A stretch of DNA of 64,000 bases from Mobula hypostoma (taxonomy: Eukaryota), in the NCBI RefSeq assembly GCF_963921235.1, contig NC_086108.1:50532001-50596000 (forward strand), read 5' to 3'. This document shows positions 1-57,486 of this stretch, in pieces. Below the pieces are notes generated by a model, which was not told the DNA's origin, made no database searches, and worked only from the letters and a program-made list of their open reading frames with translations. Position 1 is the first letter of the stretch. Every line of letters starts with the position of its first letter. A program made the position numbers and the translations under genes.

Positions 1-129
1 CTTCGGCCCACAATGTTGTGCCAACCATGTAACCTACTATAGAGACTGCCTAGAATTTCCCTAGTGCATAGCCCTCTATTTTTCTAAGCTCCATGTACCT
101 ATCTAAGAGGGTCTTAAAATACTCTATTG
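1..129 (-). mobile_element. CR1-clade LINE 3' end fragment
   Basis: Closely resembles the CR1 3' end at 52470-52590 (cttcggcccaca...ctctatttttctaagctccatgtacctat). Confidence 0.8.
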
Positions 130-290
130 AAGCTGTGGACTCTATAGAGATAACTTTGTACAAGAGTATAAAGAGGAAACAAGTGTCCAGGCAAACAACA
201 GGAATTCTGCAGATGCTGGAAATTCAAGCAACACACATCAAAGTTGCTGGTGAACGCAGCAGGCCAGGCAGCATCTCTAGGAAGAGGTAC

Positions 291-326
291 AGTCGACGTT
301 TCAGGCTGAGACCCTTCGTCAGGACT
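291..326 (-). ncRNA. Minimal type I hammerhead ribozyme motif (PLE-associated)
   Basis: Minus strand reads agtc-CTGACGA-agggtctcagcct-GAAAC-GTC-gact; agtc/gact can form helix I. Confidence 0.7.
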
Positions 327-337
327 AACGAAGTCTG

Positions 338-373
338 AGTCCTGACGAAGGGTCTCGGCCTGAAACGTCGACT
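338..373 (+). ncRNA. Minimal type I hammerhead ribozyme motif (PLE-associated)
   Basis: agtc-CTGACGA-agggtctcggcct-GAAAC-GTC-gact; core CUGANGA/GAAA with GUC cleavage triplet and palindromic ACGT in place of helix III. Confidence 0.72.
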
Positions 374-760
374 GTACCTCTTCCTGGAAATGCTGCCTGG
401 CCTGCTGCATTCACCAGCAACTTTGATGTGTGTTGCTTAAGTGTCCAGGCAATTTTTTTTTCCAGATCTAACACTGGACAAAGAAAAAAATCATCATGTC
501 ATGCAACATCTGTTGAGGCAAAGGGATGGTCAATGAGAGATTTTATTAATAATCTAGTAGTTAAATAGCATTTAGGGAAAAATTATACTGATAGGATAAT
601 CTTTTTGTAAAAGGAATAAAAACCATTTCATTCAAGCTAGAATCAGGATCTTAACATCTAGACAAAATAATCCATGTAGTTATGAAATGTTAGTTGGCTG
701 TGGAGGGTTGGGGAAATAATTTAAAAGAGTTGACAGTAAACAAGTATAACTAGTACTTAC

Positions 761-936
761 ACACACTTTGCTGCAAATGTATTTCTTTCTAAGGCACAAA
801 CAAAAAAAATCAATAGGAAATGGCTTATCACCAAAGTGCACAAAGCCTGAAGATTGTCAGGCTCCAGCAAAGGAGGACCAGAAAATTGTTAAGGGTAATT
901 CCAGCCAAAAGCAAAACGGTAAAAGATTGCATAAGT
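761..936 (-). other. Putative internal (probably 5'UTR/non-coding) exon of a minus-strand host gene
   Basis: Minus-strand acceptor atttgtgtttctttttgcag ends at 937 and donor GTAAGT at 760-755; non-repetitive sequence; stops in all three frames. An alternative acceptor (ttgtttgtgccttag) would give a 28-nt exon. Confidence 0.4.
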
Positions 937-1390
937 CTGCAAAAAGAAACACAAATGTAAAAGTTAACCTGAGTGCCATAAAGACAGAGACTGGAGTGAC
1001 ACCCTAATAGCAAATAAGTTAAACAAATATCTTCTGCCTTCATGAAGGAGATATATAATAATCAAGTACAGGGAAAGAAAGTACACTGGCAAAACTCGGT
1101 CACTGAGCGCATGACTCAATCTCCACCCAGAGAGGGCAGCAGCATAGCTACGTGTGTCACAGGGCTCCAAACCCCACTCACATTTCCCTGCTAATGGTAT
1201 GTAGTTTGATCTTGGTTTAAAAAAAGATAAAATTTTGTTCAGCTCATTCATCCTATGACTATCTCTGGCAGACGAGCATGGACCTTTTTGAACAAGAACT
1301 ACTATTCAATTTACTAGATGAAAAGATAGTGAAACCAGTTTTAGTCACGACTTTCAGAAGGGATTTGGACATGTATTTGAAAAGGAACAC

Positions 1391-1745
1391 TGGCTAGTCT
1401 CCAGTCCTCTGGGATCTTGCCTGTGATTTAAGAGGATACAAACACCTCTGTCACATTCCTAGTAATATCCTCTCTTGCCTCTGTCTATAGCCTGGGATAG
1501 ATCCCATCGTGCCCTAGTGACAAATCCACCTTACAGTACGTCAAGTGACCAAACACTTCCTCCTCGACGTCAACACATCACAGAACATTAGCATACTCCT
1601 CCCTGATTTCACTATCCTCCATGTCCTCCTCCTCCTCAGCAAATACTGATGTGAAGTAATTCTTCAGGATTTCACCCACTTTCACCAGCTCCAGGCACAA
1701 ATACCCTCCTTTGTCCTTCAGTGGTCCTACCCACTCCCTTTAACC
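1391..1745 (-). mobile_element. Degenerate CR1 ORF2 fragment
   Basis: Minus translation KVDLSLGHDGIYPRL*TEAREDI...TGKIPEDWRLA resembles the CR1 KSPGPDGIYPR...PEDW motif. Confidence 0.75.
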
Positions 1746-2469
1746 TATGTATATTATGATTGATATTTTAAAATGCTTTTATGGACAGAAGAGATGAAGA
1801 TTTAATGCAAAAACTATCCTGTGACTTCCTCTGGAACATCCATATATGGGAACATCACTTCAGGAAACAGTCAGGTGTTCTGACTTCACTTGTCCTCTGG
1901 GATCAAGAACAACCACAGTGGCAACCAAGCAAAAAGAAGGGGAAATAATTCAAAGTTGCTCACTGTTCTGCTGCTAATAGGCAAGTCTATTACACAATTC
2001 AAAATTAGGCCATTTCCTGGATGTTCTCCAAATTTCATTTTTTGCAGTCACATGGCCCAGATTACACCAAAGACAGGAATGGATACAGGTGGTACAAGTC
2101 AATATTAGCATATTAACTCAATATTTAGCAACAAAAATGAATGAACAGGCAAAGGGAAGTGGTTATTTTACCTGAAATTTATATTGAAATGTTAAAAAAA
2201 GTGTGCGTGAGTCCATAAGTAATTGAAATTCCCACCTCTGGTAATGGTATCCAAATACAACAAAAAATTGCACTTTCAATCATGTCGCACTGGATATAAG
2301 CCCACAAAATAACAATGGTCAACAAATGAAATTATAGTAAAATCTATAAGCAGTTGCACAAACAATCTAGAACAACTTACAAAACATTTCAACTTACAGA
2401 CTTTTAACTCAAAAATATTAATCTCTCATAACAGAGTATTTTTGCAATATGCACTATATTTACCAAATA

Positions 2470-3274
2470 CAGTGCATTCTGGTTAATTGGGGCAGCCGTT
2501 TACTTGGGACAACTCTTAAAGAACACAAACTAAATTGAGAAAATAGCTGTGATTCCCTTCGTCTGGTTGGGACACTATACCATTAACGTGGGTAGGAGAC
2601 TGTTGCTGAACAGTTCCTAACTAGCATCAGTTGCGTGGCCGTTGAGACACTACGCAATGCTTAGAACGATCAGTTTTTATGTAGCGCCAGTTGCGTGTGC
2701 TTGTGTCCAAAAAGCAGAGTTTTGTCACTGATAGGTGGTGAGAAATAAGCAGTAAGACAACTCAGAACTGCTTTGCTCACTGTGGTTCAAGCATTCTGAC
2801 TTGGAGATGCCAGAAATTGCTGGGAGTAAAGATTAAATAATTTCACTACTTCAACAAGTTAGGAACTGCGAAAAATTTGAAGGTATTGACAATCATCTTG
2901 AATGTTACAATGAAAATGAAGATTTGAAGGACGCAATCATCGCAAGTATTGTATGAAGGTATTCCATTATTTGCACCAGGTGTCGACACTGATTTTATTC
3001 AATTACAGTCAATCAAAAGAACCGATAGATGAATTCCTCTGTCGATAACTATTAGGAAACTAATACATAGCTTTATAGTAATTTAGAGGTAGTGGTAGCG
3101 TTCTATTTGATTCTGTATTTCATTTAAATACATAGATTGTTACTCAGTTAAACAGTAACTTGTCTCTTTCATACCTTTAAACTATTTCCATGAAACTTTG
3201 GCTAATTGGGGCAGCCACATAATTGGGCCAAAATGTACTAGTCCCCATGCATCCCAATTAACCAGAATCTACTG
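2470..3274 (+). mobile_element. pogo/Tigger-type non-autonomous DNA transposon
   Basis: 22-bp TIRs cagtgcattctggttaattggg / cccaattaaccagaatctactg (2 mismatches); TA on the left; internal acidic stretch EKFEGIDNHLECYNENEDLKDAIIASI resembles a Tigger transposase C-terminus. Confidence 0.7.
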
Positions 3275-5895: not shown

Positions 5896-7075
5896 AATAG
5901 AATTTGAAAACCATTGTGAAATCACTGAATAATTACTGTATGTAGAATGACATTTGGGAGGAGGACATGAATTGGATTAGTCTGAAACAAGAGTACATTT
6001 CCAAAAATTTTCAGTGGCTTTTGATCACACTGCACTTTCTTACTTTCTAGGTCAGACAGGATGTTAATATCATTTAGCAGGTCATTTTGGCTTTTTAGAT
6101 GTTATCTCACAAGATCTAGCAATTTCTAAACCATTAAACAACCAAGATTGGCAATAACTTATCAACTGATGAAAAATTATTTAGAACTTTCTGTTATTCA
6201 ACACCGGTTTGATTTTCTTTGTTTTAATATTATGTGTTAACCTGATAGAAAACAACTTCAATATCTATTCAAGAATGGGTACATACCTCATTTGATAATA
6301 CCGGTAACAATTTAAAATGAGACTCTTTTGAAGTAGTGTTGACTTGGCACCAAGTTCCCACGTAGTTAAGTCCTTGCAACAATTTTTTTAAAAAGCTCAT
6401 GCGCTATCGAAAATTGACAGTAGTCAGCCAGCACGTCAGTTGCTGTGGAAACGACTGCGTGTGGTTGCATCTTACTGATGATACACATACTCAGAGGCAC
6501 AACAATATCACCACCTGAACAGTGGTTTCTGTATTACTAAGGCCTGTCAAGATGTCTTTCAAAGAATACTAAATTTGTCAAAAAATGACAGTTCAACAGA
6601 CACAAAGTGGGCATGACTGCAAGTTGAAGACTGCAAGTGGATGTCAAAGTTACAGCGAAATAAGATCTGAGTCAAGGCCAGCTTCAGTTCCTTGTAAAAC
6701 TTAGGAATTTTAGGAACACCAAGCCACGATTTTAAAATCCATTGACAAAGAAAAGCAATGTCTAAACATGGATTTAGTTGTGGTTATGCAAGGTTGTGCA
6801 TAACTACCTGCTATGCAAGAGTTCTTCAATGTCAGCTTGACGTGATATGAGAGTAACACGAGTCATGTTCAGCCTTGACTCTTTCGTGAATCTCTAATGG
6901 TTGGTAAAAATGCATGTAATTGTATAACCATAACCATAACCTGCATGCTCCCAACTGAGGGGTGATGTGGAAAAGATCATGAGGGAAAAGGAGACCCTTC
7001 AGAAAGTAAATGGCATACAAACCTTTCAGTAACAGAAGTCCCGAGTTACATTACTTTTGACTATACAACCATGTA

Positions 7076-7670
7076 CGAGGGGTGATTGATAAGTTCATGG
7101 CCTAAGGTAGAAAAAATCAATTTTAGAAAACCTAGCACATTTATTTTTCACCATAGTCCCCTCCTACATTTACACACTTAGTCCAGCAGTCGTAGAGCAT
7201 ACGGATCTTGGACCTCCAGAAAGTGTCCACAGCAGGGGTGATTGATAAGTTCATGGCCTAAGGTAGAAGGAGACGAGTTATACAGCTCTCACTACATGCA
7301 CATGCAGGTCAACTCTTTGAGTGATTATGCAGAAAGTTTGAAGTTAATAACTCATCAGGAGTGATAAGTTCGTGGCCTAAGGTAGAAGGAGAGGAGTTAT
7401 TAACTTCAAACTTCCTGCCTAATCACTCAAAGAGTTGACCTGCATATGCATGTAAAGAAAGCTGTATAACTCATCTCCTTCTACCTCAGGCCACAAACTT
7501 ATCAATCACCCATCTGTGGACACTTTCTGGAGGTCCAAGATCCGTCTGCTCCACAACCGCTGGACTAAGTGTGTAAATGTAGGAGAGGACTATGTCGAAA
7601 AATAAATGTGCTACGTTTTCTAAAATTGACTTTTTCTACCTTAGGCCATGAACTTATCAATCACTCCTCA
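7076..7670. mobile_element. Palindromic mariner-type MITE
   Basis: TA|cgaggggtgattgataagtt...aacttatcaatcactcctca|TA; about 277-bp inverted arms (7076-7353 / 7394-7670). Confidence 0.85.
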
Positions 7671-7994
7671 TATAATAACCATGAGATAGAGTTACAAGAT
7701 CAAGAAGCTACTTTAAGACACAGTTCTGTAAATATCTTAAAGTCTCAGTTATGATAAACACCAAGTTGTACACAATTTCCTGACACACATCTTTAAAGTT
7801 TCTACATTTGTAAAGATTACAATTCACATTGGCCAGGTGCACTCCCCTCATCCAAATCAAAACAGCAGATTACACAACTTCAGAGATTGGTATCAGTATG
7901 ATTGGGAAGACACAAAAAAGATTGTCAACGTAACTAAAGGATAATATTGTTTTTTGTTCTTCATTCCTTGTCTGTGAGGGCACAGTTAGTGCAG

Positions 7995-16330: not shown

Positions 16331-18786
16331 ATCACTGTTAATGAAAATATGCAAACAAGTATTTCTCCAGGAAAAGTATACCTTTTCTCTCTTGTGCAAC
16401 TTAGGGACAGCAGTGACACACAAGATGCTGGAGGAACTCAGTGGTCAGGCAGCATCTATAGAGAGGATCTTCTCCATAACTGCTGACTGACCTGCCACAT
16501 TCCTCCTTGTGTGTGTTATTCTGCACTTCCAGCACCACAGAATTTCCTCTGTCGGTGACGTTCTGCCAGCTCCGTGGTTGTGCATTCCATTCCATTAAAA
16601 AAAAGGCCATATTGACGTCAGGCATTTATGGAAACACTTTCTCACAAACAGCAATAAATACCTCTAAAACATTAGTATTACAAAGGATGATTTCACATAC
16701 TGAGCAAAGCAGGCAAGGGGAAAATCCCAATATTCCAGTGCTAACTTCCTGCACCAAGCAAGGACTGAGGCCAGAAAAGAAAAATCAATCAGCAGCTGTG
16801 GAAAGTGAAAATAAAGGTTGCTTTTTTAGGTCAAAGACTGGGTGGGAAAAATTAAAAGGTACTGTGATTTTAAATTGCAGAAAAGGACAAGGGAATATTT
16901 GTGATGGGGTGAGATCAGAATTATTATGCCAGTGAGCTGCAACAGTTATGGAGTAAAATAGTTAACGGAGACAATACTGGCAAAGAACAATGACGTGTTG
17001 CAAACAGAAAGGCTGTGTGGGTCATTTCCAGCAGCACAGGCTATGCCAGTGAAAAGAGAAAAATAAAACCCTATCATAGATGGATGTTCTACAGCAAAAA
17101 TGACCAGTTCTGATACAGACAGTGAACTTGTGTTACCTCAGTTTGGAGAAATCAACACTGAGCCCACAAGGCAATGCTCTTTGACTCTGTGTTGGGCTTC
17201 AGTGTAACGGCATTATTTCCTGGGCTGACAGCTTGCAAGCCATAATCCTGATGACTAGGTTTACAAAAGAGAGGATGGTTAATGTCACAGAACAAAAACA
17301 AAACTGTATTTTTGCTCCAACACATTTTTCAGTCCTCCTCACCTCATGCTGACAATTTTCACATAGTTACGCATTTAATTTTTCCAGAACTAGTGAGAAG
17401 CTGTTCGGCCTGAATGACTACAATCCAAATCAAGTTATTACATGGAGCATACAGAGATGCATTAGAAAGAAAAGAGTCGGGTGAAAAAGAGAAGGATGAG
17501 TCTCCTAGATCACAAACTTTGGTACAAGTCAGTTATGCCAGACTTAATATTTAGTTTATCCTCCCAAAACAATGCAAAAGTCAAGATTTAGACAGGGCGA
17601 GAGCAAAATTAAGTTTTATGTTTTCATTAACGATGTTCTGGAAAGCCACTGGCAATACACAAGATGGTAAAAGGAACAAAGAAAACAAAATCAAGCAATT
17701 TTAATGATGCTGTTTAAAAGTCTGAAACCCCTGTGAAATTGCAAGACAGACAGACATTTCCTCCATTTCCTTGCTCTCTCCAGAACAACTTTGCTAGCCT
17801 GACCACAATCATGATCCTTACCTGAAACTAAGCTTAAGGAAGTGTTTTTTTTAAATCTGCAGATGCTGGAAATCTGAAATAAGGACTTGAAGCGTTCAGG
17901 AGGTCAGGCAACAGGAGTGAAAGGAGAAATAAAGATAACGTTTCAGGCTAGCCTTCTTCCAGAAGTGGGAAAGAAATAAAATGGTAGTTTTACATTGCAG
18001 AGAACATAACGAGGGAGATAGATAGAATCCTCCCACCAACATAGGACCATTTTTTTCCCCTGTCTCCTAGTTCTGATGAAGGGCTTTCAACCTTTAAAAT
18101 TAACTGTTTCCCTATCCACAGATATTGTCTGAACTGCTGAGTGCTTACAACTTTTAAAACATTTATTTCTTTTTCACATTGTTGTTCAGACCAAGTCTGA
18201 CACCAATGAATTAACCCTCCAAGTTTTGAAACTTTCCTCTTCATTGTCTTTCTCAAGGAAAAGATTTGCATAGCTGATTGCTTTCATTTTTAACCCAAAG
18301 CAAAATTTACTCTTCAACGACCAAACTGTCCGGGTATGCTTTGACTTGCATCACCAGTGACATACAATAACCTTAGTATACTTTTCGGTTCCATTTCAGG
18401 AAATGAACAGACATTATCAATTATTAGCTTCCCTGTGTCGACTGAATTGCATTGGCTTATTAACAGGCTGAGGTACACAAAGGGTGCGGCTTTACCATCC
18501 TGCTTAAGCCAGTGGGCTCTATAGTTTGACTACTTTGCTTTGATATTTTGGCCAGCATTCATCCCAACCCAATGCCTAAAATGACAATGATCTGGATGTT
18601 TATTTCAGGAGTCTTTATGACAGCTTGCCACGGCTTTTCTCATTACTTTAATATAACATAAACAATGCATTTCCCTGTATGCTCTGATGTACATGTGATA
18701 CATAAACCTGAATTTTGAATCAATTTGAATCTATAGTAAGTACCTCAGTAGTGTTACTACACTTTGAAAATGCAAATATTCAAAAG

Positions 18787-22848: not shown

Positions 22849-24846
22849 GGTTAAACTGTACATAAATATATAACATATCCCTCCCCCCTTATTTTAAAGG
22901 TTTCTCCCTCTTCCCATATACAAACCAGCTGCTGAACTATTAACGGAGTAATTATTAAATTGAAACAACAAAAAGCATTTTTTTCTAAACTAGGGAAACA
23001 GGGTAGACTGTCTCTAGTCCCAGACATAACCCTGGGAATGTTCTGCCCCATGTGCTGAGGGTTTATCACGAGAGGTTCAATATATCGGGAGACCGCCTAG
23101 GAGGGTGTCAACAGCCTAGCGATAACACCAAAGCCATTTTATCTCTTGGTCCTGTACGTATGGATCTGGCTTGCACACTGCATTGTCAGTAGGGGGCATC
23201 AGGTGATGGGGCATGAATGGCCTTGCTGATTCACCAGCAATTTGATGATTCTGATGGGCAAGCAGGTCACCTAGAATATCAGGGGATGCAGGCCACATTA
23301 CAGGGGCAGTAGAATTTCAGGGGATTTTGATTGCAACGGCAATGTACTACTTGCCTTCATGCCGTTAACTAGCTTATTGAAAGCAGTCATATGTGCCTTT
23401 TTCTTGTATTTTTGAGGACCAAATGATGTAGTTAGAGTCTGTTTCAGATGAACAGGATGGCAAGCTTCCTTTCAGATTCCATTTTGAGACCTTTCAGTTC
23501 TGTTTCCACAGACAAAACCACCCCAGTCTGAACTCTCCTTTAGGCTCTCCTTGTTGGCAGTACGACTAGACAGCAGTCATTTCACATCCACATTTTCTTT
23601 TCACAGTATTTCTAAAATATTGACCTTTTCATTAATCTCTTTAATATCTTCAGTTGATGGAATGGGAGCAAAGTAGTTTGCAAGCTGTGAAACAGCAGTT
23701 GGGATCTCCTGCTCCAGAACAGCATGTCACTCAAGTTCTTCATGTGGGGTAACTGTAGGCCACTGGAGTGACTACCTGGTTACTTGAAAACCATTGACTG
23801 AACCAGCTGGATGACACTGACCCTTCACTAAGCACCTCTTCAGTCATCGATGCTAGTCCAGGTACACGTTTCTCCTTGTTGAGGTCAAAGTTTCCCAATG
23901 AGGGCTTAAGTCAGACCGGTTCCTGGGAACTTCTTGGTCAGCTTCTGATAAGTATCACATCACCTCTGCTCACCATCAACACATTTACCATCACCAAACT
24001 CTCGAATGCGCTTTTCCATATAGTCTCGTTCCCTTCCTTCTCTAGCTTCTTTGTCACACAAGTCTTGGTCTCTGCCATCCTGACCAAAGGATCTTAGTGT
24101 TATTTTGTGTCCACTTCTAATTTTCCACCAGTACCCAACTGACAAATATTTTCATTTTCCTTATTTTCCAAATACGCATCCAGGTCATTGACTCGTAGAG
24201 GTATTAGTCACTTGACAGCCAACAACAAAGCTTCAGCACTGAGGATAGAGTACAACATCAAAATATTCTTCCCTTATTCTCTCTCATGGATCTACAATTT
24301 TTTGCTTGAGAACTCCTCACTCCAAATCTAACGCATAATCTTTCTTAGTTCCACCCAGTGGCAAACTCCTGCCAGAACTGGGATACAAGGATGCCTGCCA
24401 CTTTACAGGGTCCCAGATGCCTTCCCTGTCATATTTTTCCAAAAGACACACTGGTCTCTCCTTTACATATGGGTACTCTTTGATTTTTAGCAGCCTTTCC
24501 TTGTAATATCTATATGGTTTCTTCATGCCACACATTTTTATTGTATCATTTAATTGATCTTTTTTCTTCAATCCCTTTTTTTTTATTAAATCCATGCTGT
24601 CACCAAGGCTCAGCAACCACCTCCACAATTCTGCTCAGAACGCAGGCTTAACAGTGATTCCTTTCATACTGCCCAGTTCTTTGTTGAATACTTCTGCATA
24701 TTTCTTCAAAACCTCTTGGAGACTAGTGTTACCACCAATCAAGTGCACTTATTGCCAGTTAAGTCTTAGCTGCCCAGAAGCACTGAATAACTACCTGTTA
24801 CCAATGTACAGTGTTTCTGTTCATTAATCTCCACTATAACAGTGGA

Positions 24847-27959: not shown

Positions 27960-30650
27960 CTAATAGGACACACACAGTAAATACCTTTGATACACAGGGA
28001 CCTTTCAGTGGAGTTTAGAGCTCTCTGAAAATAGTGACCTAGTTGAATACACAGTGAAGAAGGATTGTGGGGTGCTCAAGAGTTGGGCTGTCACGTTGCA
28101 GCTATACAAAATGTTGGTCAGGCCATACTTGCCGTGTTGTGTACAGTTCTGTTCACTACACTGAGGAAGAATATGGTAACTTCAGAAACAGCGCACAAGC
28201 GATTCACCAGGATGTTTCCTGGGACAGAGGGCTTCACTTATCAGGAGAGATGGGATAGACTGAATTTATTCTCACTAGAACAAAAGAGGTTCAAGGGTGA
28301 CCTCATGAAGGCTTATAGATTCATCGAACACAACAGCACAGAAAAAGGCTCTTCAGTCCATCTAGTCTGTGCTGAACCATTAACCTGTCTGGTCCCATTG
28401 ATGTGTACCCCATAGCCCTCCATAATTTCCCCATCCATGTACCTATCCAAATTTCTCTTAAACGTTGACACCAAACTCACGTCCACCACTTGCACTGGCA
28501 GCTTATTCCACACTCTCACCAGCACTAAGTAAAGATCCCCCTCATAGTCCCCTTAAACATTTCACCTTTTACCCTTAACCCATAACCTCCAGTTGTAGTC
28601 TCACCCAACCTCAATAGAAAAAGCCTGCTTGCATTTATTCTATCTATATTCCTCATAATTTTGTAGACCTCTATAAAACCTCCTCCCAATCTTCTACATT
28701 CCAAGGAATAAAGTTCTAACCTTTTCAAACTTCCCCAATAACTCAGTTCCTCAGGTCCCGACAACATCCTTGTAAATTTTCTCTATACTCCTCAAATCTT
28801 ATTTACAGTACATTTTTCCTGTGGGCAGGTGACCAAAAACTGCACACAATACTCCAAATTAGACCTCATCAACGTCCTAAATAATTTCAAAATAACATCC
28901 CAACTTCTGGACTTAATACATTGATTTATGAAGGCCAAAGTTCCAAAAGCTTTCTTTATGACCCTATCAACCTGTGATGCAACTTTCAAGGAATTATGGA
29001 TCTGTATTCCCAGATCCCTCTGTTCAACCGCACTCCTCAGTAGCTTACCACTGACCATGTAAGACCTACCCTTATTGGTTCTCCTAAAGTGCAACACCTC
29101 ACACTTGTTTGCTTTAAGTTCCATCTGCCATTTTTTAATCCTATTTTTCCAGCTAGTCCAGATTCCGCCACAAGCATCAACAAATTTGCTGATCCAGTTT
29201 ACCACACTGTCATCCAGAGCGTTGATATAGATGTCAAACAGCAACAGACCCAGCACCATTCCCTGCGGCACACCACCAGTCACAGGTCTCCATCTATAAC
29301 CACTCTCTGGCTTCTCCCCCAAACCCAATGTCAAATTCAATTTACTACCTCATCATGACCAATTTTGTCAAAGGCCTTGCTAGTATCCACGTAGACAACA
29401 TCCACCGCCTTGCTTTCATCACTTTCCTGGTATTTTCCTCAAAAAGATTCTACAAGTTTGGTTGGATATGACCTACCACAATCTTGTATGATAATATAGT
29501 AAACTGGATCAGCAAATTTGTGGATGCTTCCTGTGGGATCTGGACCAGCTAGAACAATGGGCTGAAAACTGGCAGATGGAATTTAGTGCTGACATGTGTT
29601 GATGGAATGAAGCCATGATGTCAATCCCTAATCAGTCCCTGTCTATACAAATGCTTACACATCCAGTCCTACCGAATACCATCCAGTCACCTTCCTTTTA
29701 GTGATGGCAGACTCACCAGCCTATGACTTCCTGTTTTACTCTTAGAGCCCTTCTTAAACAAGGAACAACATTAGCTATCCTCCAATCCCCTGGCACTTCA
29801 CCCGTGGCTAAGGATATTTTAACTATCTCTGCTTGGGGCACTGTAATTTCTACATTGTAATAGCAAGGGTCCAAGGGAACACCTTGGCAGGCACTGAGAT
29901 TTATTCGCCCTACTCTGCCTCAAGACAGCAAATGCCTCCTCCTCTGTAATCTGTATAGGGCCCATGACTTCACTGCTGCTTTGACTCACTTCGAGAGACT
30001 CTGTGTCCATCTCCCGAGTAAATACAGATGCAAAAAATCCATTTAAGATCTACCCCATCTCTTTCAGCCCTATGCATACATTAGATTACCTCTTTGATCT
30101 TTCAGATGGCCAGTTTTGTCCCTTGCAATCCTTTTACTCTTAACATGTCTGTAGAGACCCTTGGGATTCTCTTTCGCCTTGTCTGCTAGAGGAACATCAC
30201 ACTTTCTTATAGCCCTCCTGACTTCCTTCTTAAATGTTCTCTTGTATTTCTTATACTCCCCATTTGTTCCTGTCTCCCTATACCTGCCATGCACCTCCTT
30301 TTTTTAAAACCAGAAAAAGTTCATGATACAATTCAGAGCCATGGATAGGGTCTTGTCTGCAGGTGAAGGAATTCTAAAACAAGAGGGCACAGGTATAAAG
30401 TGCGAGGGAAGAAACTTAAAGGAGCTGTAAGATTCTCCATTAAGAGGTGGTGAATACATGGAATGAAATGCCAGAGGAATAATAGAGGCCAAAAGAATTA
30501 CAATGTTCAAAACACATTTGCTCAGACACTTGAATAGCACAAGAAAAGTAGGATATGGGCCTAATGGAGGCAAATGTGATTAGAGTAGACAGACATCACA
30601 GTAGGCCTGGACAAGATGAAGCAAAGGGCTCATTTCTATGATGTACAGCA
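27960..30650 (+). mobile_element. Older plus-strand CR1 split by a minus-strand CR1
   Basis: ORF 28065 ends ...KRFKGDLMKAY; matching sequence resumes at about 30305 (ctaaaacaagagggcacagg, KTRGH). Confidence 0.7.
28318..30300 (-). mobile_element. CR1 LINE (degenerate ORF2)
   Basis: ORFs 30070, 29819, 28792 (VTGGVPQGMVLGLLLF), 28525 and 28313 all carry CR1 ORF2 motifs. Confidence 0.85.
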
Positions 30651-30759
30651 AAAAGCAGAAATCATTAGAGTAGGAGTTAGGTTAACTGGAACATAACCAG
30701 TTGGTCTGAATGGCTAGTTCTAGTCCTGTAGATCTTTTAATAATCCAACAGCTGGCAGG

Positions 30760-32036
30760 ATATTTACAACCTGCCCTTAAATTCACATGGTCCATCTCTG
30801 GCACCTCCCTCCCCTTTCTCGATCTCTCTGGAGGACAAAATGTCAACTGACAGCTTTTATAAACCTACTGATTCCCGCAGTTAACATGACCAAAACTCTT
30901 CACGCCCCCCTGCCCCCCCGCCGTAAAAGTGCTATTTACTTTTCTCAGTTTCTTCGGCTCCACTGCATCTGCTCCCAGGACCCGGCTTTCCATTCCAAGA
31001 CATTAAGAGATATCATCCTTCTTTAAAGAACTGGGTTCCCCTCTCTCTACTATTGATGTGGCTCTCACCCTTATCTCCTCCATTTCCTGTACATCTGCAC
31101 TTACCCGAACTTCCCACTGCCTTTATAGCAATACAGTCCCTCTTGTGTCTTACCTACCACCCCATCAGCCACCACGTCCAACACATTATCCTTCACAACT
31201 TTCACCATTTCCAAACAAATCCTACTACTAAGCATACTAAGCACCTTCCCCAGGGACACTCCCTCCATGATCCCCTCGTTCACTTGTCCCTCCCCACTAA
31301 TCTCCCTCCGGGCACTTATCCCTGCAAGCAGTCTAAGTGCTCCACCTGCCCACACACCTCCTCCCTCACCTCCATTCTGGGCCCCAAGCAGTCCTTCCAG
31401 GTGAGACAACACTTCACCTGTGAATCTGCTGGGGTCGTCTGTTGTGTCCAGTGCTCCCAATGCAGCCTTCGCTACATTGATAAGACCCATTGCAAACTGG
31501 GGGATGGCTTTGTTGAGCACTTCCGCACCATTTGCCATAAGCGAGTCTTCCCGGTGACCGAGCGTTTTAATTCCTTTTCCAACATGTCGAGCCATGGCCT
31601 CCTCATGTCAAGATGAGGACACACTCAGGATGGAGGAGAAATACCTTATATTCTGTCTGGGTATCCTCCAACCTGATGGCATGAATATTGATTTCTCCTT
31701 CTGATGAACAAAATTCCACCCCTCCCCCACCTATTCTCCACTTTGACCTTTTACTTCCTCTCACCTGCCTCCCATTTCCCCCATCTCCTCCTCCTTCCCT
31801 TTCTTCCACTGTCCACTGTCTTCTCCCATCAGATTCTTTCTTCTCTAGCCCTTGACCTTTCCCACCCACCTGGCTTCATTTATTACCTCCCAGCTAGCCT
31901 CTCCCCTCTGCCTCCACCTTTTTATTTTGGCATCTTTCCCCTTCCTTCTCAGTCCTGACGGTGGTTTTTGGCCAGAAACATCAACTGTTTATTCCTTTCC
32001 ATAGATGCTGCCTGACCTGCTGAGTTGCTCCAGTGT
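30760..32036 (+). mobile_element. Penelope-like element: RT C-terminus, GIY-YIG endonuclease and pLTR
   Basis: PALKFTWSIS...YKPTDS; ORF 31053..31616 PGTYPCKQSKCSTC...HFTCESAGVVCCVQCSQCSLRYIDKT...EHF; pLTR with mutated hammerhead core at 31951-31986. Confidence 0.85.
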
Positions 32037-35000
32037 TTTTTTTTAATCTACAATGTAACTGCAATGCACTTTCACTGAAATATTTCTATACAGGATAAGC
32101 TGAGGCAGCAAAAATGACCGGATGTGCAGAACCCTTAAGCAAATAACCCCAGTCTAAATCTTTACTTGTGCACTTCCACACTTGGGCCAGAGAGAATGAT
32201 AGCAACAATTCAGAGTAGAATGAGTCTGGCTCACTTCAATCCAGTTTTCTTTGTACTTCCAAGAAGGAAAAGTAACATCAAAGTGTCCAAAAATTTTCAC
32301 CATTTCAAAATGATAATTGGGTAGTCTCAATCGGCATACAAAATGTCGAAGTTATTCTCTGTACTGTATGGTTAATACTGACAAGTACTGCCATGCAGAG
32401 TTAAAGCTGCACTGCAACACAGCTGGCTATTTTAAATCTGTCAGCACTGAATTCTCGAAATGTGAATTGTTTTATTTTCCAATGAAAGCATGCGCAGCAT
32501 TAAAAATAAGGAACATAATTAGCAAACAGAAAATTGTGTTAGAAGTGATATGTGGTACTTACTATTATGTGTTGGTATGGATCTATTGAAGCCATTCTCT
32601 ATCACCAGTTAACAGAACTCCAGTGCACTTTATAATGAATTCAAGTGACAACAAATGAAAATAATCTGTAACTTGAAGTTTCCTCTTTGCAGATGAATAA
32701 ATTAAGCAATCTTCAGCAAACATCTGTCTTCATTCCTGTAATACAGAATAACAATTAGTAGCCATTCAACCAATTAATCTCTGTACTAACGTGTACTGTA
32801 TAATAGTCAATTATCAATTAATAGAATGAAGAAACTCAGCCAAGTACAACCCAGAAAGAACATTTAATTCTCTCCATCATTCAGCTTATCCATACGTGAT
32901 CAGAAGGCTTTGTCTCCGTCATCACATCAGAAAGTCTGGTACATTATGTTTACAGTGTGAAAATTCCTCATGCATTAATGTCAAGTTTGCGATTTTTAAA
33001 TAAAGTTCTTACCCTAAGCCTTCCTGCCACCCCAGCATCCTTACCCACAAGCCCCATCATTGCAGTATGTTGGTCTTGATGTAGTTCTGTTCTACCCTTC
33101 AATACTATTTTGTTTTCTCTCCTTTACTTCAAGTTGTCCATCAAGTTGTTGATTTTAATAAAGACAAACTATTTGCAGAGTATGTCTGATGCAGTCACCG
33201 GAAAGAAATTGTGACAATCTACTGAAATTGAATTATACTTGTAGAATGAGGTCCAACTGAACTTTGAAGAGGGGCAGAGTAATCTCAGGAAAATAAAAAA
33301 AAACACATTTATTCACGAACATTAGTATTATAAATTTACAAATATCCAAATTCTACTCAACTACAAATATTCCAGGTACCAGTTAGACTATTCTATCAAA
33401 CAATAAAAATACAAATGCACACATACATACATGTGCACAGAACATACATAGAACACCTCCACAAAACACATGCACAAATCACGCATGCAAAATATACGTG
33501 ATGAAGCAGTTTTTACTTGGTCTTCCACCAACACATTTATCAATCAGTTATATTTTCTTTGCTGATCCAATTGACGGAGGAGGCAATTCCTGTTGTCTTA
33601 GCAGCAAGAAATGCACTACATATTAGTAAGTAGCCATACCTGGGGAATTGACGATGTAGCTGGGGGTAAATTATCCTCCCCAAATAAAGTAAAAATCATG
33701 GTCACTAATGTTAAAGCTTGTGTCTGCTTTAAAGATGGCAATCACTCCATCCCAAACAGCAGAGAATCACTTAAATCAGTACTTACCCACACATCTCCAG
33801 ATATATCTAGTTACACAGAATTACATCATATTTACATTAGAGAAGCAGGTCATACAGTCCAATGTGAAACAAAAGATTATGCTCCACCTGAACCTCCTAC
33901 TTTCCTATTTATCTAAGCCAATCAGCAAATCGTCCTACTTCCTTCATCATCATACGCTTACCCAGCTTCCCCTGAAATGCATTTATACTATTTGCCTCAA
34001 ATTAATTTGTGGCAGTGAGTTCCACATTCTAAGAACAGTGTTAAGAATGTTTCTCTGAGAATCAAAAATAAGCATTTTATCACCCCTAATTTAGGTTTCC
34101 CTGATCTTCCAATTATTATCTTCTCACTTTGCTTACAGCATCAGCTTTAAACAGGAATTTGACATGTCAGAATTTTGATCTAATATTAGCACAATTGTGA
34201 AAATATTGCACCAAGACTAAACAGCAAACAAGCTTAAAAAATGACTTTTTTCTTCTGAAGTTCATTCATTTCAACAAGTGATTCATGCATTTTTTTCTGT
34301 ATCTGCATTTTAGAAAATAAACTGTATGAAGTGGCATTTATTATAGTTTAATAGGTCAGTAGATACACCTCTTCAGTGAAGGGATATCATTGTCATTTAG
34401 CGTGAAAGAGGAGCCAAGAAACTTTCTTTAGTAAAAGGCAGCCTTCAGTGGGTCAGTGGGTCATAACCAAGAGATAAGTTTTGCACTGGGCTCAGCTGTT
34501 CAGATGAAATTTTACACTGAGACCCTTTTTGCCATTTCAGTAGTTCAAATTCCCAATGAGAGGACCTTAACCACCAGACTTTTATATCCCTTGAAGTTTG
34601 CTACATGTACTCTGGCAAGATATGGAGGCATTGTATTTTAGCTTTAATAAAAATTGTTTTGAAATAATATACTGTGGAGCTCATGTTTTCATTTTAAACT
34701 AGCCACTATCTCTCTAGGCGATTTTGAGGCCTCAGAGTTTACAATTCTGTATTATCTCTTTGTATTTTGATCAATTTTAATAAAGCAATTTATTCCATTT
34801 TTAAATAATTACTTCTGATTATTTGGTCAGTGTAAGTTTAAGGAATAGGTCTAGAGTGGTTAAAAAAACATCACAATTATGGATGCAAAAGTGTCTTGAG
34901 ATACTCTACAAAGTAGAAAATAGGAATGGCAAGTCACTACTAGAAGACGGACCCTAAAGCTCAGAAAACTATGTTTCATTGTGAAACTCAAACGAGATGA

Positions 35001-35390
35001 AGAAAGTGGGCAAGGAGTAAAAGCGAAGGAGACAAGTCCCAGTGGGTGAAGGCATTCCAGCAAGGCAGGAGTAAAGAAGCAAGGCTAGGTAAGCACCTGG
35101 AAATCACTGGATTAGAATATGTGGTTGGTGATGAGTTGTAACATAGGAGGGGGTTGCTGAAGTAAGGAGATCTTGGAAAAGTGAACACAGATGAGAATTT
35201 CAAAATTTAAGTTACTGAAGGACTAAACAATACAAAATCATGAACATCACAGTTCTTGGAGATAGAATTTGGGTCACAGAAATTGGAATGACTGATCATT
35301 TACATAAGGAGGAGGATCTCACAAAAGCTTTTAAATGCAGCCACTGCTGTAGTCTGTAACCAGTGTTGCTAAGATAGCAACTACTAAGTA

Positions 35391-35503
35391 CCACACATCA
35401 AAGTTGCTGGTGAATGCAGCAGGCCAGGAGCATCTCTAGGAAGAGGTATAGTCGACGTTTCGGGCCGAGACCCTTCGTCAGGGCACCTTGTGTTTGCGTT
35501 TTT
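35391..35503 (-). mobile_element. Short PLE pLTR insertion with hammerhead core
   Basis: Near-identical to 231-322; core cTGACGAagggtctcggcccGAAACGTCgact on minus 35450-35482; ends in the tgtttgcgtttt terminus; aactactaa on both flanks. Confidence 0.75.
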
Positions 35504-36714
35504 AAACTACTAAATGCATCAGTTTTTGAAGGGAAGCAATTTAAAGGCAATGGTGAAAAAATAAAGCACATTGGATTGTTTTGGCAAGGAGTATAAACGG
35601 CCACAAAGATCCAACCACTAAATACACCCCTTCTTTGTAAAGCATTCAAAACATTCTTTACATTACTCGAAATAACTTGTATGAATCTATATTCTCAGAT
35701 CTCAAAAAGCAAAAAATAAACTAAAATCACTGCAATTTTGTTGTCATGGCTAAAATGTAAACTATTTAATACCTCCCTACTCCAATGATGCTCTCTCGTT
35801 AGATCCTAGATCAGCTGGGACCGAGCTTTACTAGCTACAAAAGTTGTCAAAGAAATTACTATTTCCTGACAATAAGGGACATCAAATATCAGATATTCAA
35901 AGTAACTAATTTAAAAAGATAGTTTAGTGAGATAGAGATAGTTTAATTCATGAAAACTATTAAAATTTTAATATAAAGCAATTTTAAGTAAGTAATTCCT
36001 CTTCCATCATGGAACAACATAATGAAACAGACCCTTTGTGCCAACGTCCATGCCAATCAAGATGCCTGTCTAAGCTAGTCTGACTTACCCACATTTGACA
36101 CATACCCCTTTAGAGCTTTTCTATCTATGAACCTGCCCAAGGGGCTTTTAAATGATCTTACCTCCCTCAACAACATCTTCTGGCAGTTCATTCCATGTAA
36201 TTCCCATACTCTGCATGAAGAAGTTGCCTCTCAATTCCCTTTTAAATCTTTTCCCTCGCACCTTAAACCTATGCCCACTAGTTTTTCTATTCACTTTCCC
36301 TGGGGAAAAAATAACTGTGTGTAGTCACCGTATCTTTGCCCTTCACAATTTTATATCCTTCTCAATTTGGTCAAATAAGATCTATAAGAAATCCCAGCAA
36401 GACTGGACTTTGCAGTTACGACCCTTCAAAATCCATCAGTGAATCCACAATAGAAGATGTTCAAAGGGTTCAATGACTCAGCATTTTATCTCTTCACAGA
36501 TAATAAACAGCCAATGACTCATCTTCCTTTCAGTCTGCCCTTAAATGCCAATTTACTTATTCCACCTGCCTGCAGGTTCCATATTCTCACTGCTCACTGG
36601 GTAGAAATATTTCTCAAAAATTCCCTGATGGATTTGGTCACTTTTATGTGCCCATTTCTTTTTGGATCCCTCCCCTTCCTGAATGGAAATAGCTCCACTT
36701 CAAGCAGATCACAA

Positions 36715-40761: not shown

Positions 40762-41803
40762 ACAAGGAAATCTGCAGATGCTGGAATTTCAAGCAACACA
40801 CGTAGAAGTTGCTGGTGAACGCAGCAGGCCAGGCAGCATCTCTAGGAAGGGGTACAGTCGATGTTTCAGGCCGAGACCCTTCATCAGGACTAACTAAAGG
40901 AAGAGCTAGTAAGAGATTTGGAAGTGGGAGGGGGAGGGGGAGATCCGAAATGATAGGAGAGAACAGGAGGGGGAGGGATGAAGCCAAGAGCTGGACAGGT
41001 GATTGGCAAAAGGGATATGAGAGGATCATGGGACAGGGGGCCTAGGGAAAAAGAAAAGGGGGGGCGAAACCCAGAGGATGGGCAAGGGGTATAGTGAGGG
41101 GGACAGAGGGAGAAAAAGGAGAGCGAGAGAAAAAGAATGTGTGTATATAAATAAATAACGGATGGGGTACGAGGGGGAGGAGGGGCATTAGCGGAAGTTA
41201 GAGAAGTCAATGTTCATGCCATCAGGTTGGAGGCTACCCAGACGGAATATAAGGTGTTGTTCCCCCAACCTGAGTGTGGCTTCGTCTTTACAGTAGAGGG
41301 GGCTGTGGATAGACATATCAGAATGGGAATGGGACGTGGAATTAAAATGTGTGGCCACTGGGAGATCCTGCTTTCTTTGGCGGACAGAGCGTAGGTGTTC
41401 AGCGAAACGATCTCCCAGTCTGCATCGGGTCTCACCAATATATAGAAGGCCACAGCGGGAGCACCGGACGCAGTATATCACCCTAGCTGACTCTGGGGCC
41501 CTGAATGGTGGTGAGGGAGGAAGTGTAAGGGCATGTGTAGCACTTGTTCTGCTTACAAGGATTTGTGCCAGGAGGGAGATCGGTGGGGAGGGATCTGGGG
41601 GGACGAACGGACAAGGGAGTCGTGTAGGGAGCGATCCCTGCGGAAAGCGGGGGGGCGGTAGGGAACGATGTGCTTAGTGGTGGGATCCCGTTGGAGGTGG
41701 CGGAAGTTACGGAGAATTATATGTTGGACCCAGAGGCTGGTGGGGTGGTAGGTGAGGACAAGGGGAACTCTATTCCTAGTGGGGTGGCGGGAGGATGGAG
41801 TCA
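40762..41803 (-). mobile_element. Young 5'-truncated Penelope-like element with GIY-YIG domain
   Basis: ORF 41188..41481 IYCVRCSRCGLLYIGETRCRLGDRFAEH...E..LIFRLGSLQPDGMN; ORF 41553 RVPLVLTYHP; pLTR 40762-40891; gagcctt on both flanks. Confidence 0.9.
40856..40891 (-). ncRNA. Minimal hammerhead ribozyme motif in PLE pLTR
   Basis: agtc-CTGATGA-agggtctcggcct-GAAAC-ATC-gact. Confidence 0.65.
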
Positions 41804-42369
41804 GAGCCTTTATTGATTTGTGTAGTGGATCAAAGCGACCTTGGATTATGCATTCATAGATCCTTAAAATAATTTCATTGGCCAGTAAGTTGATTAAATG
41901 TACATTTGGGTTCCTTTTATTTATTATCCTCAGAGCATAAAATGGAAGAAAATGCACTTATGCATTGTACTTTATGTAGTTAGGTCACAGTTTAAGTATG
42001 TGTCTATCTTTGGTACCATATTGCAGAACAGCTGTGATGCACGAAAGCAAATCAGAGGGGATTCTGAAAAGTTGTTGGGATAAGAAACTTGTAGCCCTGA
42101 GGAAAGAATAGTTAAATTAAAGCTGGTCCTTTTAAATCATTAAGGACTGATGGTAGATATTTAAATTGGTTAAAAATATGAGGGGGGCCTAGGCAGAGTA
42201 AAAAGATGGGAACAGTTCTCAAAGTTAGGCTAAAACCCAGTGCACATGATTCTGAAAAAAAGGAAATATTACAGGGGAGATGAGGAAAGTTGGAATGTGG
42301 TGGGATTCTACACCACACTGCAAAAAAGGCAAACACCCTCAGCACATTTATAAACACTTAGACCCTAAG

Positions 42370-46023: not shown

Positions 46024-46674
46024 TTTTATTAAATTTTCAGTGTCATGTAATGTTTGTTTAGTTACGTCTGCACTTGCATTTGTCTTATGAGAAAGCTTGC
46101 ATGTTGAGTTTAAGAACAGGCAATCCTTTCATCAAAGTATTTGCCATCCTTTCAATCTGCTGGTGAAATTTAATCAGATTCTTTAATAAGGTACTGGCCC
46201 TGCCCTTTGATAAGAACTTTTCTTATCTTAGGGAGATGTGTGTTAGGCTGTTACAGCAAATACTGTCACAGTGAGCACAGCACCCAGATAACTACAGTAC
46301 ATCTGATCATTCAGGATTAGCTTTTGAGAAATTCTGCAGAAATTCTGGCTTTTTTACAGTAAGGCAATAATCTAATATTTTACAAGCCTATAATTGGCAA
46401 AGTTCCATTTTACTTTTCTCTAATTTGATTATGTAGCTAATGTCAATCGTAATTATTAATATTGATATATAGCTGATACATTTTAAAAATAATCTCTCAG
46501 TATATCTAACCTTTGTGAGTAGTGCATCAGTGCTTTGAGCAGCACACACAAAATGTTGGAAGAACTCAGCATGTCAGGCAGCATCTGTGGAGGGAAATAG
46601 TCAATGTTTTGGGTCAAGACCTTTCAGCTGGATTCATCAGACCTGATGAAGGGTCTCAGCCTGAAACGTTGACT
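46024..46674 (+). repeat. Local duplication, copy 1 (partner 62788-63409)
   Basis: Collinear matches: ttattaaattttcag; aaagta.tt.ccatcctt; ggtgaaatttaat; agcacccagat; taattggcaaagtt; ttgattatgtagctaat; aatctctcagtata; same PLE hairpin at the same position. Confidence 0.85.
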
Positions 46675-48383
46675 GTTTATTTCCCTCTGTAGATGCCCTG
46701 ATGAGTTTCTCCAGTATTTTGTGTGTGTGTTGCTCAAGATTTCCAGCATCTGAAGAATCTCACGTGGTTCCTAAATATACTTGAATGTGTACATGAGAAT
46801 TGTAACCTACAGGGCCAAGTTCCTAGTGCAGCATGTTGGAATTGGGATCAATGCCATTGGCACATTGACCAAAATACACCATGAATGAAACAGAATCCAA
46901 AATTCATGAAACCAATGATGACCAAATAAATCCTCAGAAAGAGTACTATTTAAATGGCAGTAAGTTGCTGATCTTGCTTGTAACAATATTATTTTTAAGT
47001 GAAGACATTGTTGTATTCTGTGTAATGCAGTTTCACAGAAGTTCAATTCAACATGTTGGCAGGCTCACTAAGGTACAAGCAATTTTTCAGATTTTCACAA
47101 AATCTCCTGCATTCCTGTTGACACATCTGTGTCACCATATGTCACCCAGGGTACATCCAACATCTATGTAATGAAGGTGAAGTTGAAACGTTTGCTCCTA
47201 ACTTCTCACAAAATTACCCATTCCAGCCTTTCTTGGTGTTTACACCATCAGAGAAGCCAGGCATCAGCTAATGGATTTACTCCACAATCAAGAAATGGCT
47301 GTGCATTGGATATAGCAAGGACGAAAGCCTTCAAAACAATCCAGACATATGTTTAATCGAGTTGTTGCCTCACAATTTCAGTGACCTCGGTTTGATCATG
47401 AGCTTTGGTGCTGTCTATATGGAACTTTCATTTGCTCCCCGTGACCAATAAAAACGCTCATGGCATAGTTTTAGTTTTTGTTCAAAAGTACTTCACACTT
47501 CCTCTCAGTGCTGCTCTACAGGCATGCCCATGAGTTATGTCAAAATAGTTTTCATTGACCTTATTCAGCAAAAAAAATTTCACCAGAATACATATGTGAA
47601 AATAGTAACCCACTTCCATTTCTTAGGTTGCTGACACACTTTCTCACAGGCACTGTGTTTCTAAAGTTCTCCATAGGCTGCACTCCAGTAAACCTTCAAA
47701 CTTAGCATTTAGGAAAACCCCTAAAAATATTTCTAATGTTTGGAAGACAAAGGGAAGGAGGAGTAAGAAGGGAAATGAAATGGGGAGTGGCTGAAGCAAA
47801 GGGAGTGAGGCAGAAGGAATTGGGATAAAGGTGGACGTGCAGCAAAAGCATAACCAAATTCAGTCACCCAACTAGATCCTCTGGATTGAAATGGTGGGGC
47901 AAAAGTTATGTGCCAGAGGAATTTTCATTAGTGTAAGTCTACTGTAGGCTAGAAGCTTGGAAGATGTAGCATGGACAAAAAACTTCTGTAGTATTGCCAA
48001 ACTAACATTTAGGTACAAGCACTATGTCAGCTTTATCATTGATTGGTTGAACCTTACACTAGTTGATCCCATTTCCAGCCAGATAGAACCATGGTTCATG
48101 CTCACAGTAACTCTTTGGGGCCTGAACATTTTGTTTATCTGAGCATCAGGTACACTATGAAATGTCTTGCATTTTATGTCTTGTAATACATTACAATTCA
48201 ATTATATAAACAAAAACATTCTGGAAATAGCAGGTATGGAGAGAGAAACATTTTACGCCAATGATGAGCATTCAGAAGTGAGACAACTTTGTAGGCAACA
48301 AGGGAAAGATCTGTGATGAGCTGAATACAATAGTGGTGCTGGCTGACAGTGGCTGACGAAAGCAGTGAATTATAAATCATAGC

Positions 48384-48700
48384 CACAAGAGATTCTGCAG
48401 AATGATTTGAAGCAATGCAAGCAAAATGCTGGAGGGAGTCAGCAGATCAGGCAGCATCTATGGAAAAGAGTGAGCAGTCAATGTTTCGGGCCGAGACCCT
48501 TCAACTGGACTGGGAAAAAATATTATGAGAAGTCTTCAGAATTCTGACTTCTCATCGCTTTTTTTTCCCAGTCCTGATGAAGGGTCTTGCCCCAAAACAT
48601 CGACTGTTTACACTTTTTTGAGGAAGCTGCCGGGCCTGCTAGTTCCTCCCGCATTTTGTGTGCTTGGATTTCCTACATCGGCAGATTTTCTGGTGTTTGT
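48384..48700. mobile_element. Older PLE fold-back (palindromic) insertion
   Basis: Inverted pLTR arms around the centre atgagaagtc..gacttctcat; hammerhead core at 48570-48605 has GAAA changed to AAAA. Confidence 0.75.
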
Positions 48701-49456
48701 GATGAAAAGAGTAGTTTAGAATACATTCCAGACAGGCTGGAATCCACTTGAAAACAATGGTTCTGACCTCATCCGTATAAACTGTGATGCTTTTGGAATA
48801 TTGTATGAACTTTTGGCCTGTACTGTGTAATGCATTTAACACTTCTGGAGTTTAGGGCTTCAGTAAATCTTCTGTAGCACAGGAACAAGCTCTTTTGTCC
48901 AACTCATTCATGTTGACCAGTTGCCCAACTATGTCAGTCCCATTTGCTTGCATTTGTCCCATATTCTTCAAAGCCTTGCCTAAATCTAACATTAGGGAAA
49001 ACCCTCCTGGCAGGAAGTCAATATTCCTTTCAATGTTTGATAAGTTTCAATGAGATTCCCCTCATCCTTCGAAACTCCAATGAGTACGGACCCAGAGCCA
49101 TCAAATGCTCTTCATTCCTTAACCTTTTCATCCTCAGGATCATTATTGTAAACCTCCTCTGGACTCTCTCCAACACCAGCACCTTAGATAAAAGACCATA
49201 AGGCATACTGTAGGAACGAATAAGGTCATTCAACCCACCTTGTCTGCTACTCCATTCAATCAAGGGTGCTTATTTTCTCTCTCAGTCTCCTGTCTTCCCC
49301 CTGTAACCTTTGACACCTTTACTATTTGAGAACCTATCAACCTCCACTTCAAGTGTACCCAGTGACTTAGTCTCCATAATGGATTCCACAGATTCACCAC
49401 CCTCTGGTGAGCTGTCTCCCCTGTCCGTGGCTTCTTCAAAGAATTGAAACATATTT

Positions 49457-55872: not shown

Positions 55873-57486
<1,614 letters not shown>

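Follow-up and report, generated by a model that had tools for sequence, protein, structure and literature searches.

Close to the left end of the DNA analysed here (a single stretch of 64 kb, the window) lies a hairpin-shaped insert of 244 bp (195-438) that carries two opposed hammerhead ribozyme motifs, and the question it raises is whether such a structure is a tiny retroelement in its own right or a by-product of the integration of a larger one. Comparison of the sequence with itself bears out the layout proposed in an initial interpretation made from the letters alone (the sequence-only reading): an insertion of this length with inverted arms of 101 bp each (226-326 and 338-438), separated by an 11-nt spacer (327-337). 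The perfect 14-bp direct repeat that had been described at the flanks is equally real, the two copies of AAGTGTCCAGGCAA (181-194 and 439-452) being identical at 14/14 positions and occurring nowhere else in the window; the chance of a 14-bp repeat within ±10 nt of both insert ends is about 2e-6. The arms differ from each other at four sites (255, 275, 278 and 307), all of them transitions and none compensated, and from the family majority at one and three sites, respectively, two of which are at CpG. The insert has a folding energy of -216.5 kcal/mol (z -24.5), and none of 200 shuffled sequences was equally stable.

Three features had escaped the sequence-only reading: a tail that is present on one side only (195-225), a microhomology of 4 nt between this tail and the target-site duplication (TSD), and a G.U pair that closes helix II of the hammerhead. 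The unpaired 31-nt tail is diagnostic for the nature of the insert. The microhomology concerns the last four nucleotides of the left TSD (191-194, GCAA), which match the end of the family tail and thereby place a short stretch of complementarity at the priming site. On the other side of the tailed arm the family sequence carries on through 327-333 with a 1-nt deletion, and the junction that follows resembles a short stutter of the opening bases of the right arm, its TCTG filler, for which the end of a spliced exon may be considered as a source, differing from the consensus of the contig loose ends at 338.

Features of the insert and of related copies in the window. Family positions (negative numbers) are counted from the 3' end of copy B; PLE, Penelope-like element.
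Feature	Position	Strand	Remarks
Left target-site duplication	181-194	.	14 bp, AAGTGTCCAGGCAA
Unpaired PLE tail (element 3' end, tailed arm only)	195-225	-	31 nt; 35 nt with microhomology
Tailed arm, PLE 3' end	226-333	-	5'-truncated about 146 nt from family 3' end
Minimal type I hammerhead, tailed arm	291-326	-	predicted cut 295/294
Putative junction filler TCTG	334-337	.	4 nt
Inverted tail-less arm	338-438	+	family positions -140 to -40; begins exactly at hammerhead helix I
Minimal type I hammerhead, tail-less arm	338-373	+	predicted cut 369/370
Right target-site duplication	439-452	.	14 bp, AAGTGTCCAGGCAA
Pyrimidine tract and AG directly 5' of helix I	31926-31952	+	
Copy F	35379-35513	.	tail-less arm -137 to -40; TSD about 9 bp
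Copy C	40765-41810	-	same 3' end, 92.5% identity over 133 nt; 7-bp TSD candidate
Pyrimidine tract and AG directly 5' of helix I	40892-40915	-	
Pyrimidine tract and AG directly 5' of helix I	48545-48571	+	
Copy B, young fold-back of the same subfamily	57918-58202	.	14-bp TSD; differing junction
Pyrimidine tract and AG directly 5' of helix I	58031-58050	-	

The origin of the arms is revealed by their relatives. Twelve further stretches of the window, at eight loci, resemble the left part of the insert (E<1e-4), with two weaker loci in addition, and at one of these loci, copy C, the family end is contiguous with a 3' UTR of about 300 nt and then with a broken open reading frame that contains a linker zinc finger and a GIY-YIG domain (the last 101 residues give a weak GIY-YIG match, Pfam E 7.8e-4, under the cut-off). 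Since this end is joined to a GIY-YIG frame, the insert represents the 3' end of an endonuclease-positive (EN+) Penelope-like element. The frame of copy C is 91% identical to the ray protein P0002, which possesses the YIDD motif of reverse transcriptase (RT), a CX4CX2C linker and a cysteine pair inside the GIY-YIG domain. Six long relatives were scanned: RT and GIY-YIG occur together in four of them (P0125, P0072 and P0154 are among these), GIY-YIG alone in one and RT alone in one. Both a CX2-5CxxC zinc-finger linker and the cysteine pair of GIY-YIG are found in P0002, P0004, P0014, P0017 and P0018, and the linker is seen again in a frame of the window (30927-31616). According to the accessible part of Craig et al. 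2021 (PMC8557442), such a zinc-finger linker marks the Neptune and Nematis clades. Judged from its protein sequence, the parent is thus a carrier of a Neptune/Nematis-type linker, an assignment to either clade that derives from the linker and not from an RT tree, and the named homologs point to a cartilaginous fish, probably a ray, as its host. The parent family is clearly very abundant: over 201-300 the contigs of run X1 add up to a depth of 8.4 million, compared with 13-22 in the unique flank, although depth of this kind is no copy number.

All the hallmarks of an EN+ PLE insertion are found together here, namely a parent with RT and GIY-YIG, an inverted truncated copy, a one-sided tail and TSDs of variable length. 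The sequence-only reading saw in the insert a PLE product that is protein-free and combines minimal type I hammerheads and a palindromic helix III with an inverted-pLTR layout, a view that agrees with the link to copy C, with the motif and with the arms. An older PLE fragment at 30713-32040 (+) comprises the end of an RT, the linker zinc finger, GIY-YIG and a decayed hammerhead. A metagenome scan with the hammerhead pattern returned no locus; the same scan with a 20-nt arm pattern returned 32, all of which were dropped as chance because the matches extended over 20-32 nt only.

Each arm holds a complete minimal hammerhead core, as had been claimed (342-369 on the plus strand and 295-322 on the minus strand); the pattern occurs four times in the window and not once in 100 shuffled sequences. 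In the plus-strand motif, helix I is formed by 338-341 and 370-373, the core by 342-348, followed by an extra A at 349, helix II by 350-353 and 358-361, and the GAAAC-GUC part by 362-369. The features that define minimal hammerheads are present, that is, the CUGANGA ... GAAA ... UH core, a 4-bp helix I and the extra A before helix II. Helix III is ACGU, a loopless and self-complementary palindrome whose dimer duplex is worth only -1.7 kcal/mol. Helix II has 4 bp, two of which are G.U pairs, and is closed by G.U in place of the G10.1-C11.1 pair; this applies to both arms and to copies B and C, while copy F has G-C. An Rfam search, which had been suggested as a check of the motif, gave no hammerhead family at E<=10 (1-3000 and 325-400), which leaves the motif as the basis of the ribozyme call; matches to miRNA and snoRNA families, all far under their gathering scores, were rejected.

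These motifs resemble the minimal hammerheads of metazoan PLEs as described in the accessible text of Cervera and De la Pena 2014 (PMC4209133) in their core boxes, a helix I of 4-5 bp, the extra base before helix II, the loopless palindromic helix III and a splice-acceptor-like motif at the 5' edge of helix I, but differ from them in the 4-bp helix II with its two G.U pairs and in the G.U that stands for G10.1-C11.1. The same source reports dual minimal hammerheads on opposite strands of pLTRs, 100-700 bp apart, whereas the two motifs here are separated by just 11 nt; the word 'shark' does not occur in its main text.

The arrangement of the arms has consequences for the ribozymes. As the two arms are joined by their 5' ends, the antisense hammerhead is transcribed first and the sense hammerhead second, whichever strand is read, and an active dimer is impossible in cis since the two motifs sit on opposite strands. 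The expectation that a transcript from either strand would pair its single ribozyme with its own antisense is in line with the opposed arms and with the folding energetics: opening the core costs 61.5 kcal/mol (plus strand) or 59.6 kcal/mol (minus strand) in the full insert, and likewise in prefixes that end 7 nt past the ribozyme. For the lone 36-mer monomer, in which the core pairs with its own cut site, the cost is 4.4 kcal/mol. The ribozymes are therefore predicted to be locked in the hairpin with no co-transcriptional window for folding, and on these models the hammerheads would be catalytically silent passengers, hidden in a hairpin of about 101 bp. Published minimal hammerheads showed no cleavage as monomers and weak cleavage as dimers (PMC4209133).

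Other fold-backs in the window allow a comparison of how such inserts are built (the insert at 195-438 is referred to as copy A). The tailed arm of copy A reaches from -146 to -9 and stands head-to-head with a tail-less arm from -140 to -40. Copy B combines a tail-less arm from -172 to -41 with a tailed arm from -125 to 0 and possesses the full 40-nt tail, and copy F has its inverted arm joined to just the last 19 nt or so of the tail, so that the two parts do not overlap in their template. The tail-less arms of all three young fold-backs start at practically the same place (-40, -41 and -40 in A, B and F), and their tailed arms start at -9 (or -5 with the microhomology), 0 and 0; loose ends of public contigs accumulate at 191 and 227. 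TSD lengths are 14 bp in A, 14 bp in B, about 9 bp in F and 7 bp in C. None of the six young arms ends at the predicted cut (-109) and five of the six cross it. Decayed older fold-backs of related subfamilies lie at 46535-46758, 48376-48703, 63271-63409 and 16410-16550. The one at 16.4 kb turns back before reaching the hammerhead, those at 46.5 and 63.3 kb sit in a duplicated segment of about 650 bp (46026-46673 and 62791-63409, 76% identity), and the one at 48376-48703, copy D, has tail-like sequence on both arms. Copy B seemingly interrupts an older LINE-like frame (58151-58657).

We consider it very probable that the insert was dead on arrival, the result of two priming events by an endonuclease-positive PLE of Neptune/Nematis type that acted in trans. 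The nicking, priming and joining steps that we infer are as follows. The GIY-YIG endonuclease would nick both target strands 14 nt apart, a distance taken from the TSD, and each nick would prime reverse transcription on uncleaved element RNA, the first at the tail end, aided by the 4-nt microhomology, and the second at a fixed internal position about 40 nt upstream of the tail end. Both cDNAs would break off prematurely, at distances of about 146 and 140 nt from the 3' end, before being joined head-to-head with 4 nt of filler; gap filling would then create the TSD. That the templates were uncleaved is suggested by the arms that run past -109 and by the absence of arms that end there. The model is drawn from the three young copies, and the older copy D is an exception to a uniform rule.

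In several respects this scheme is similar to what has been described for the Poseidon element of Anolis carolinensis (Frangieh et al. 2024, PMC11167929, in its accessible part), the protein of which nicks and extends both strands in vitro, begins reverse transcription at two internal sites bounding the tail and uses unprocessed RNA as its main substrate. The two elements are not alike in other respects: the hammerhead of the anole element is located at the start of the ORF and that of the present family about 300 nt past the stop codon, and the parent here carries a Neptune/Nematis linker. The accessible text of that study, which concerns a Poseidon-type element, states no two-primer origin for inversions. 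A literature search for a two-primer account of PLE inversions, with most subscription papers outside its reach, found nothing relevant. In twin priming of LINE-1, both target nicks prime cDNA and leave a 5' inversion inside the TSD, the two parts being derived from non-overlapping template. Unlike in these inversions, copies A and B overlap almost fully in their template, and the start of the second primer is fixed.

A motif next to the hammerhead may bear on where the arms end. The 25 nt preceding the AG of helix I are 80-88% pyrimidine in the four copies that are long enough; copy B holds TACTAAC, the branch-point consensus, copy C holds a one-base variant of it, and the loose-end consensus of run X1 at 329 shows the same TACTAAC-type motif on the other strand. 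In the insert itself the branch point and most of the pyrimidine tract are lost. In Penelope of D. virilis the intron ends at the 5' end of helix I (PMC4209133, accessible text), and by analogy it looks as if the vertebrate element had the same arrangement, with a likely intron end in the pLTR. The ends of three of the six young arms (-137 to -146) lie no more than 7 nt from the hammerhead's 5' edge, and all 12 in-element joints among the best-supported ones listed from public contigs re-enter at 334-347, a pile-up that is partly forced because the reference arm starts at 338. On this basis it may be suggested, tentatively and as a rather unlikely proposition, that the arms stop preferentially at the hammerhead 5' edge because the template RNA ends or changes there, that processing at the acceptor could define a short RNA, and that some hairpins are re-mobilised whole. 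Processing at the acceptor would in this case yield an RNA reaching from the hammerhead to the tail, which would be copied by the PLE protein from both nicks. If true, a large set of junctions from one genome would make both the two-primer mechanism and the role of splicing in PLEs directly testable. The acceptor-like motif may also explain host gene models that include PLE sequence (P0001, P0004 and P0006).

Whether the hairpin is copied as a unit can be approached through its junction. The 21-mer across the junction is unique in the 64-kb window at up to three mismatches, and at least 12 in-element joints, among 15 listed of 1001 in public contigs over a 3-kb stretch, are all different from each other. 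Given that the other fold-backs in the window have different junctions, the insert at 195-438 looks like a one-off integration product and not like a member of a replicating family, within the scope of the window and the public contigs; the notion of a distinct tiny retroelement, put forward in the sequence-only reading, finds no support. It is accordingly quite unlikely that the hairpin is itself a replicating, non-autonomous, SINE-like fold-back PLE, whose transcript would be bound at the unpaired tail and inserted again in one piece. A minus-strand transcript would retain the unpaired tail for this purpose, yet the RT would need to unwind a hairpin of about -209 kcal/mol, and the ends of both arms vary among copies A, B and F. 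Several other junctions have 6-16 times the depth of the unique, single-copy flank in run X1, depth again being no copy number, and recur in organisms B and C, and two of the joints listed are seen in organisms A, B and C; against this, chance recurrence of junctions at microhomologies would be expected if the family had about 1e5 copies. One listed joint (276 to 334) re-enters at the filler bases of copy A, and non-autonomous PLE derivatives have been described (accessible parts of PMC8557442 and of bioRxiv 10.64898/2026.07.22.740005), so that secondary amplification or re-mobilisation of some fold-backs may occur. The non-LTR retrozymes reported in the latter source are likewise small, protein-free, PLE-derived and equipped with type I hammerheads, but form head-to-tail tandems with two ribozymes per strand, whereas the copies here are inverted, which leaves one ribozyme per transcript, paired to its antisense. 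A non-LTR retrozyme was rejected on these grounds, and also because the TSD is the only direct-repeat family in 1-1500.

Alternatively, the 3' end of a single tail-primed cDNA might have folded over, the cDNA then serving as its own template for the inverted arm. For copy A alone this snap-back synthesis fits, as the tailed arm extends further (to -146) than the inverted one (to -140) and a short stutter is seen at the junction, but it fails for copy B, in which the tail-less arm extends to -172 and the tailed arm just to -125, and for copy F with its two parts that lack any overlap, and it leaves the start of the inverted arm at -40 or -41 in all three young copies unexplained. We therefore regard snap-back as very unlikely and favour two priming events, with which all three young copies are in agreement.

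The insertion is not brand new. A contig of organism B starts in the right arm, its first base aligning at 413, and can be followed to 2520; over 2115 nt it shows 34 differences and 15 gap letters. It joins the end of the right arm to the same flank, from which it follows that the insertion predates the split between organisms A and B. The contig of organism A itself begins at 415, and in one of organism C the alignment begins no earlier than 485, leaving 90 or 123 letters toward the element unaligned. The description of the insert as recent consequently holds only loosely: the copy is young, but organism B shares it. High-copy repeats with depths of 1e4-1e6 are situated beside the locus at 1-135 and 2400-3000. 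Elsewhere in the window, 7074-7672 is a near-perfect palindrome of 600 bp with nested inverted repeats, MITE-like and unrelated to PLEs, 29101-29599 has inverted arms of 84 and 35 nt in LINE-like RT sequence, perhaps a LINE inversion, and 56184-57065 (-) is the remnant of a Tc1/Sleeping Beauty-type transposase with HTH and DDE matches.

The proposal that the insert lies in the intron of a minus-strand gene is not supported, as no spliced host gene was found with Pfam in the minus-strand frames or in the plus-strand frames of the first 30 kb. On the minus strand the bulk scan covered 298 of the 327 stop-free frames with a length of 45 aa or more; the other 29 mostly overlapped transposon ORFs or family copies, and some of them were scanned separately. 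On the plus strand it took in all 139 frames of the first 30 kb (one of them scanned separately), with 176 more lying farther along and outside the bulk scan. The only clear match to a host gene on the minus strand is EIF4ENIF1 (4E-T) at 23130-24559, 23 kb away, where residues 11-548 of the homolog are packed into 1.4 kb with 52-56% identity to shark and skate proteins over two long blocks. Being intronless and having many stops and frameshifts, this locus is a retrocopy, and it may be the gene that the sequence-only reading had in mind. Apart from transposon domains and EIF4E-T there were weak matches under the cut-off to ALKBH8_N, Phi-29_GP16_7 and DUF7899. The insert may still lie in the long intron of a gene whose exons are outside the window or have no Pfam match.

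These results also bear on a role of the insert as a functional host RNA element, be it a ribozyme at work in an intron or a hairpin that is retained because it supplies small RNAs directed against the family. A hairpin of 101 bp, if transcribed, would be a substrate for dsRNA-processing enzymes, both hammerhead cores are intact, and the insertion is shared with organism B. Nevertheless we hold such a role to be highly improbable: the ribozyme is sequestered by about 60 kcal/mol, with the antisense coming first on both strands, no spliced host gene was found in the frames scanned, the four arm differences lack compensation, and published minimal hammerheads were inert as monomers and weak as dimers (PMC4209133). 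A literature search on hairpin or siRNA roles of inverted pLTRs, which most subscription papers lay beyond, returned nothing relevant. Run X22, presumed to be RNA, is without cover at 601-1500 and 1701-2300 and is uninformative either way. A different fold-back joint, from 215 to 342 and present in one contig, has a depth of 696 in this run (its nature as RNA being a guess) versus 3 in a DNA run, which may point to transcription of some fold-back at another place.

An interpretation as a MITE or fold-back DNA transposon, framed by terminal inverted repeats, can practically be dismissed, since for all its shortness, lack of coding sequence, inverted arms and TSD, the insert has repeats that are not terminal owing to the 31-nt tail on one side, TSD lengths vary between copies (14, 14, about 9 and 7 bp), and the arms are the 3' end of an RT/GIY-YIG element.

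Seen as the product of two priming events, the insert finds its closest counterpart among published PLE insertions, which are truncated at the 5' end, where an inverted truncated copy is often attached directly, and bear a tail of 30-40 bp that is frequently present at one end only (Craig et al. 2021, PMC8557442, accessible part). With the complex insertions of EN+ PLEs in that account it shares the inverted truncated 5' copy, the one-sided tail, the variable TSD and the hammerhead near the 3' end, as well as a parent with RT, linker zinc finger and C-terminal GIY-YIG. The difference lies in size: here both copies are cut to about 100-146 nt, and as a result the whole insertion is one hairpin without an ORF. 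It is the published pattern of PLE insertion in miniature, a described by-product of integration. A literature search found no paper devoted to the present PLE family of a cartilaginous fish.

As a single locus the insert carries little weight, being one of very many decaying PLE scraps. Its value is that of a clean record of PLE integration, a process that is still poorly understood: the fixed start of the tail-less arms, the differing junctions and the lack of overlap in copy F fit the two starts of reverse transcription that another PLE shows in vitro, and these features suggest how the published pattern of an inverted copy plus a tail arises. If transcribed, such hairpins would furthermore constitute a ready source of dsRNA against the parent family.
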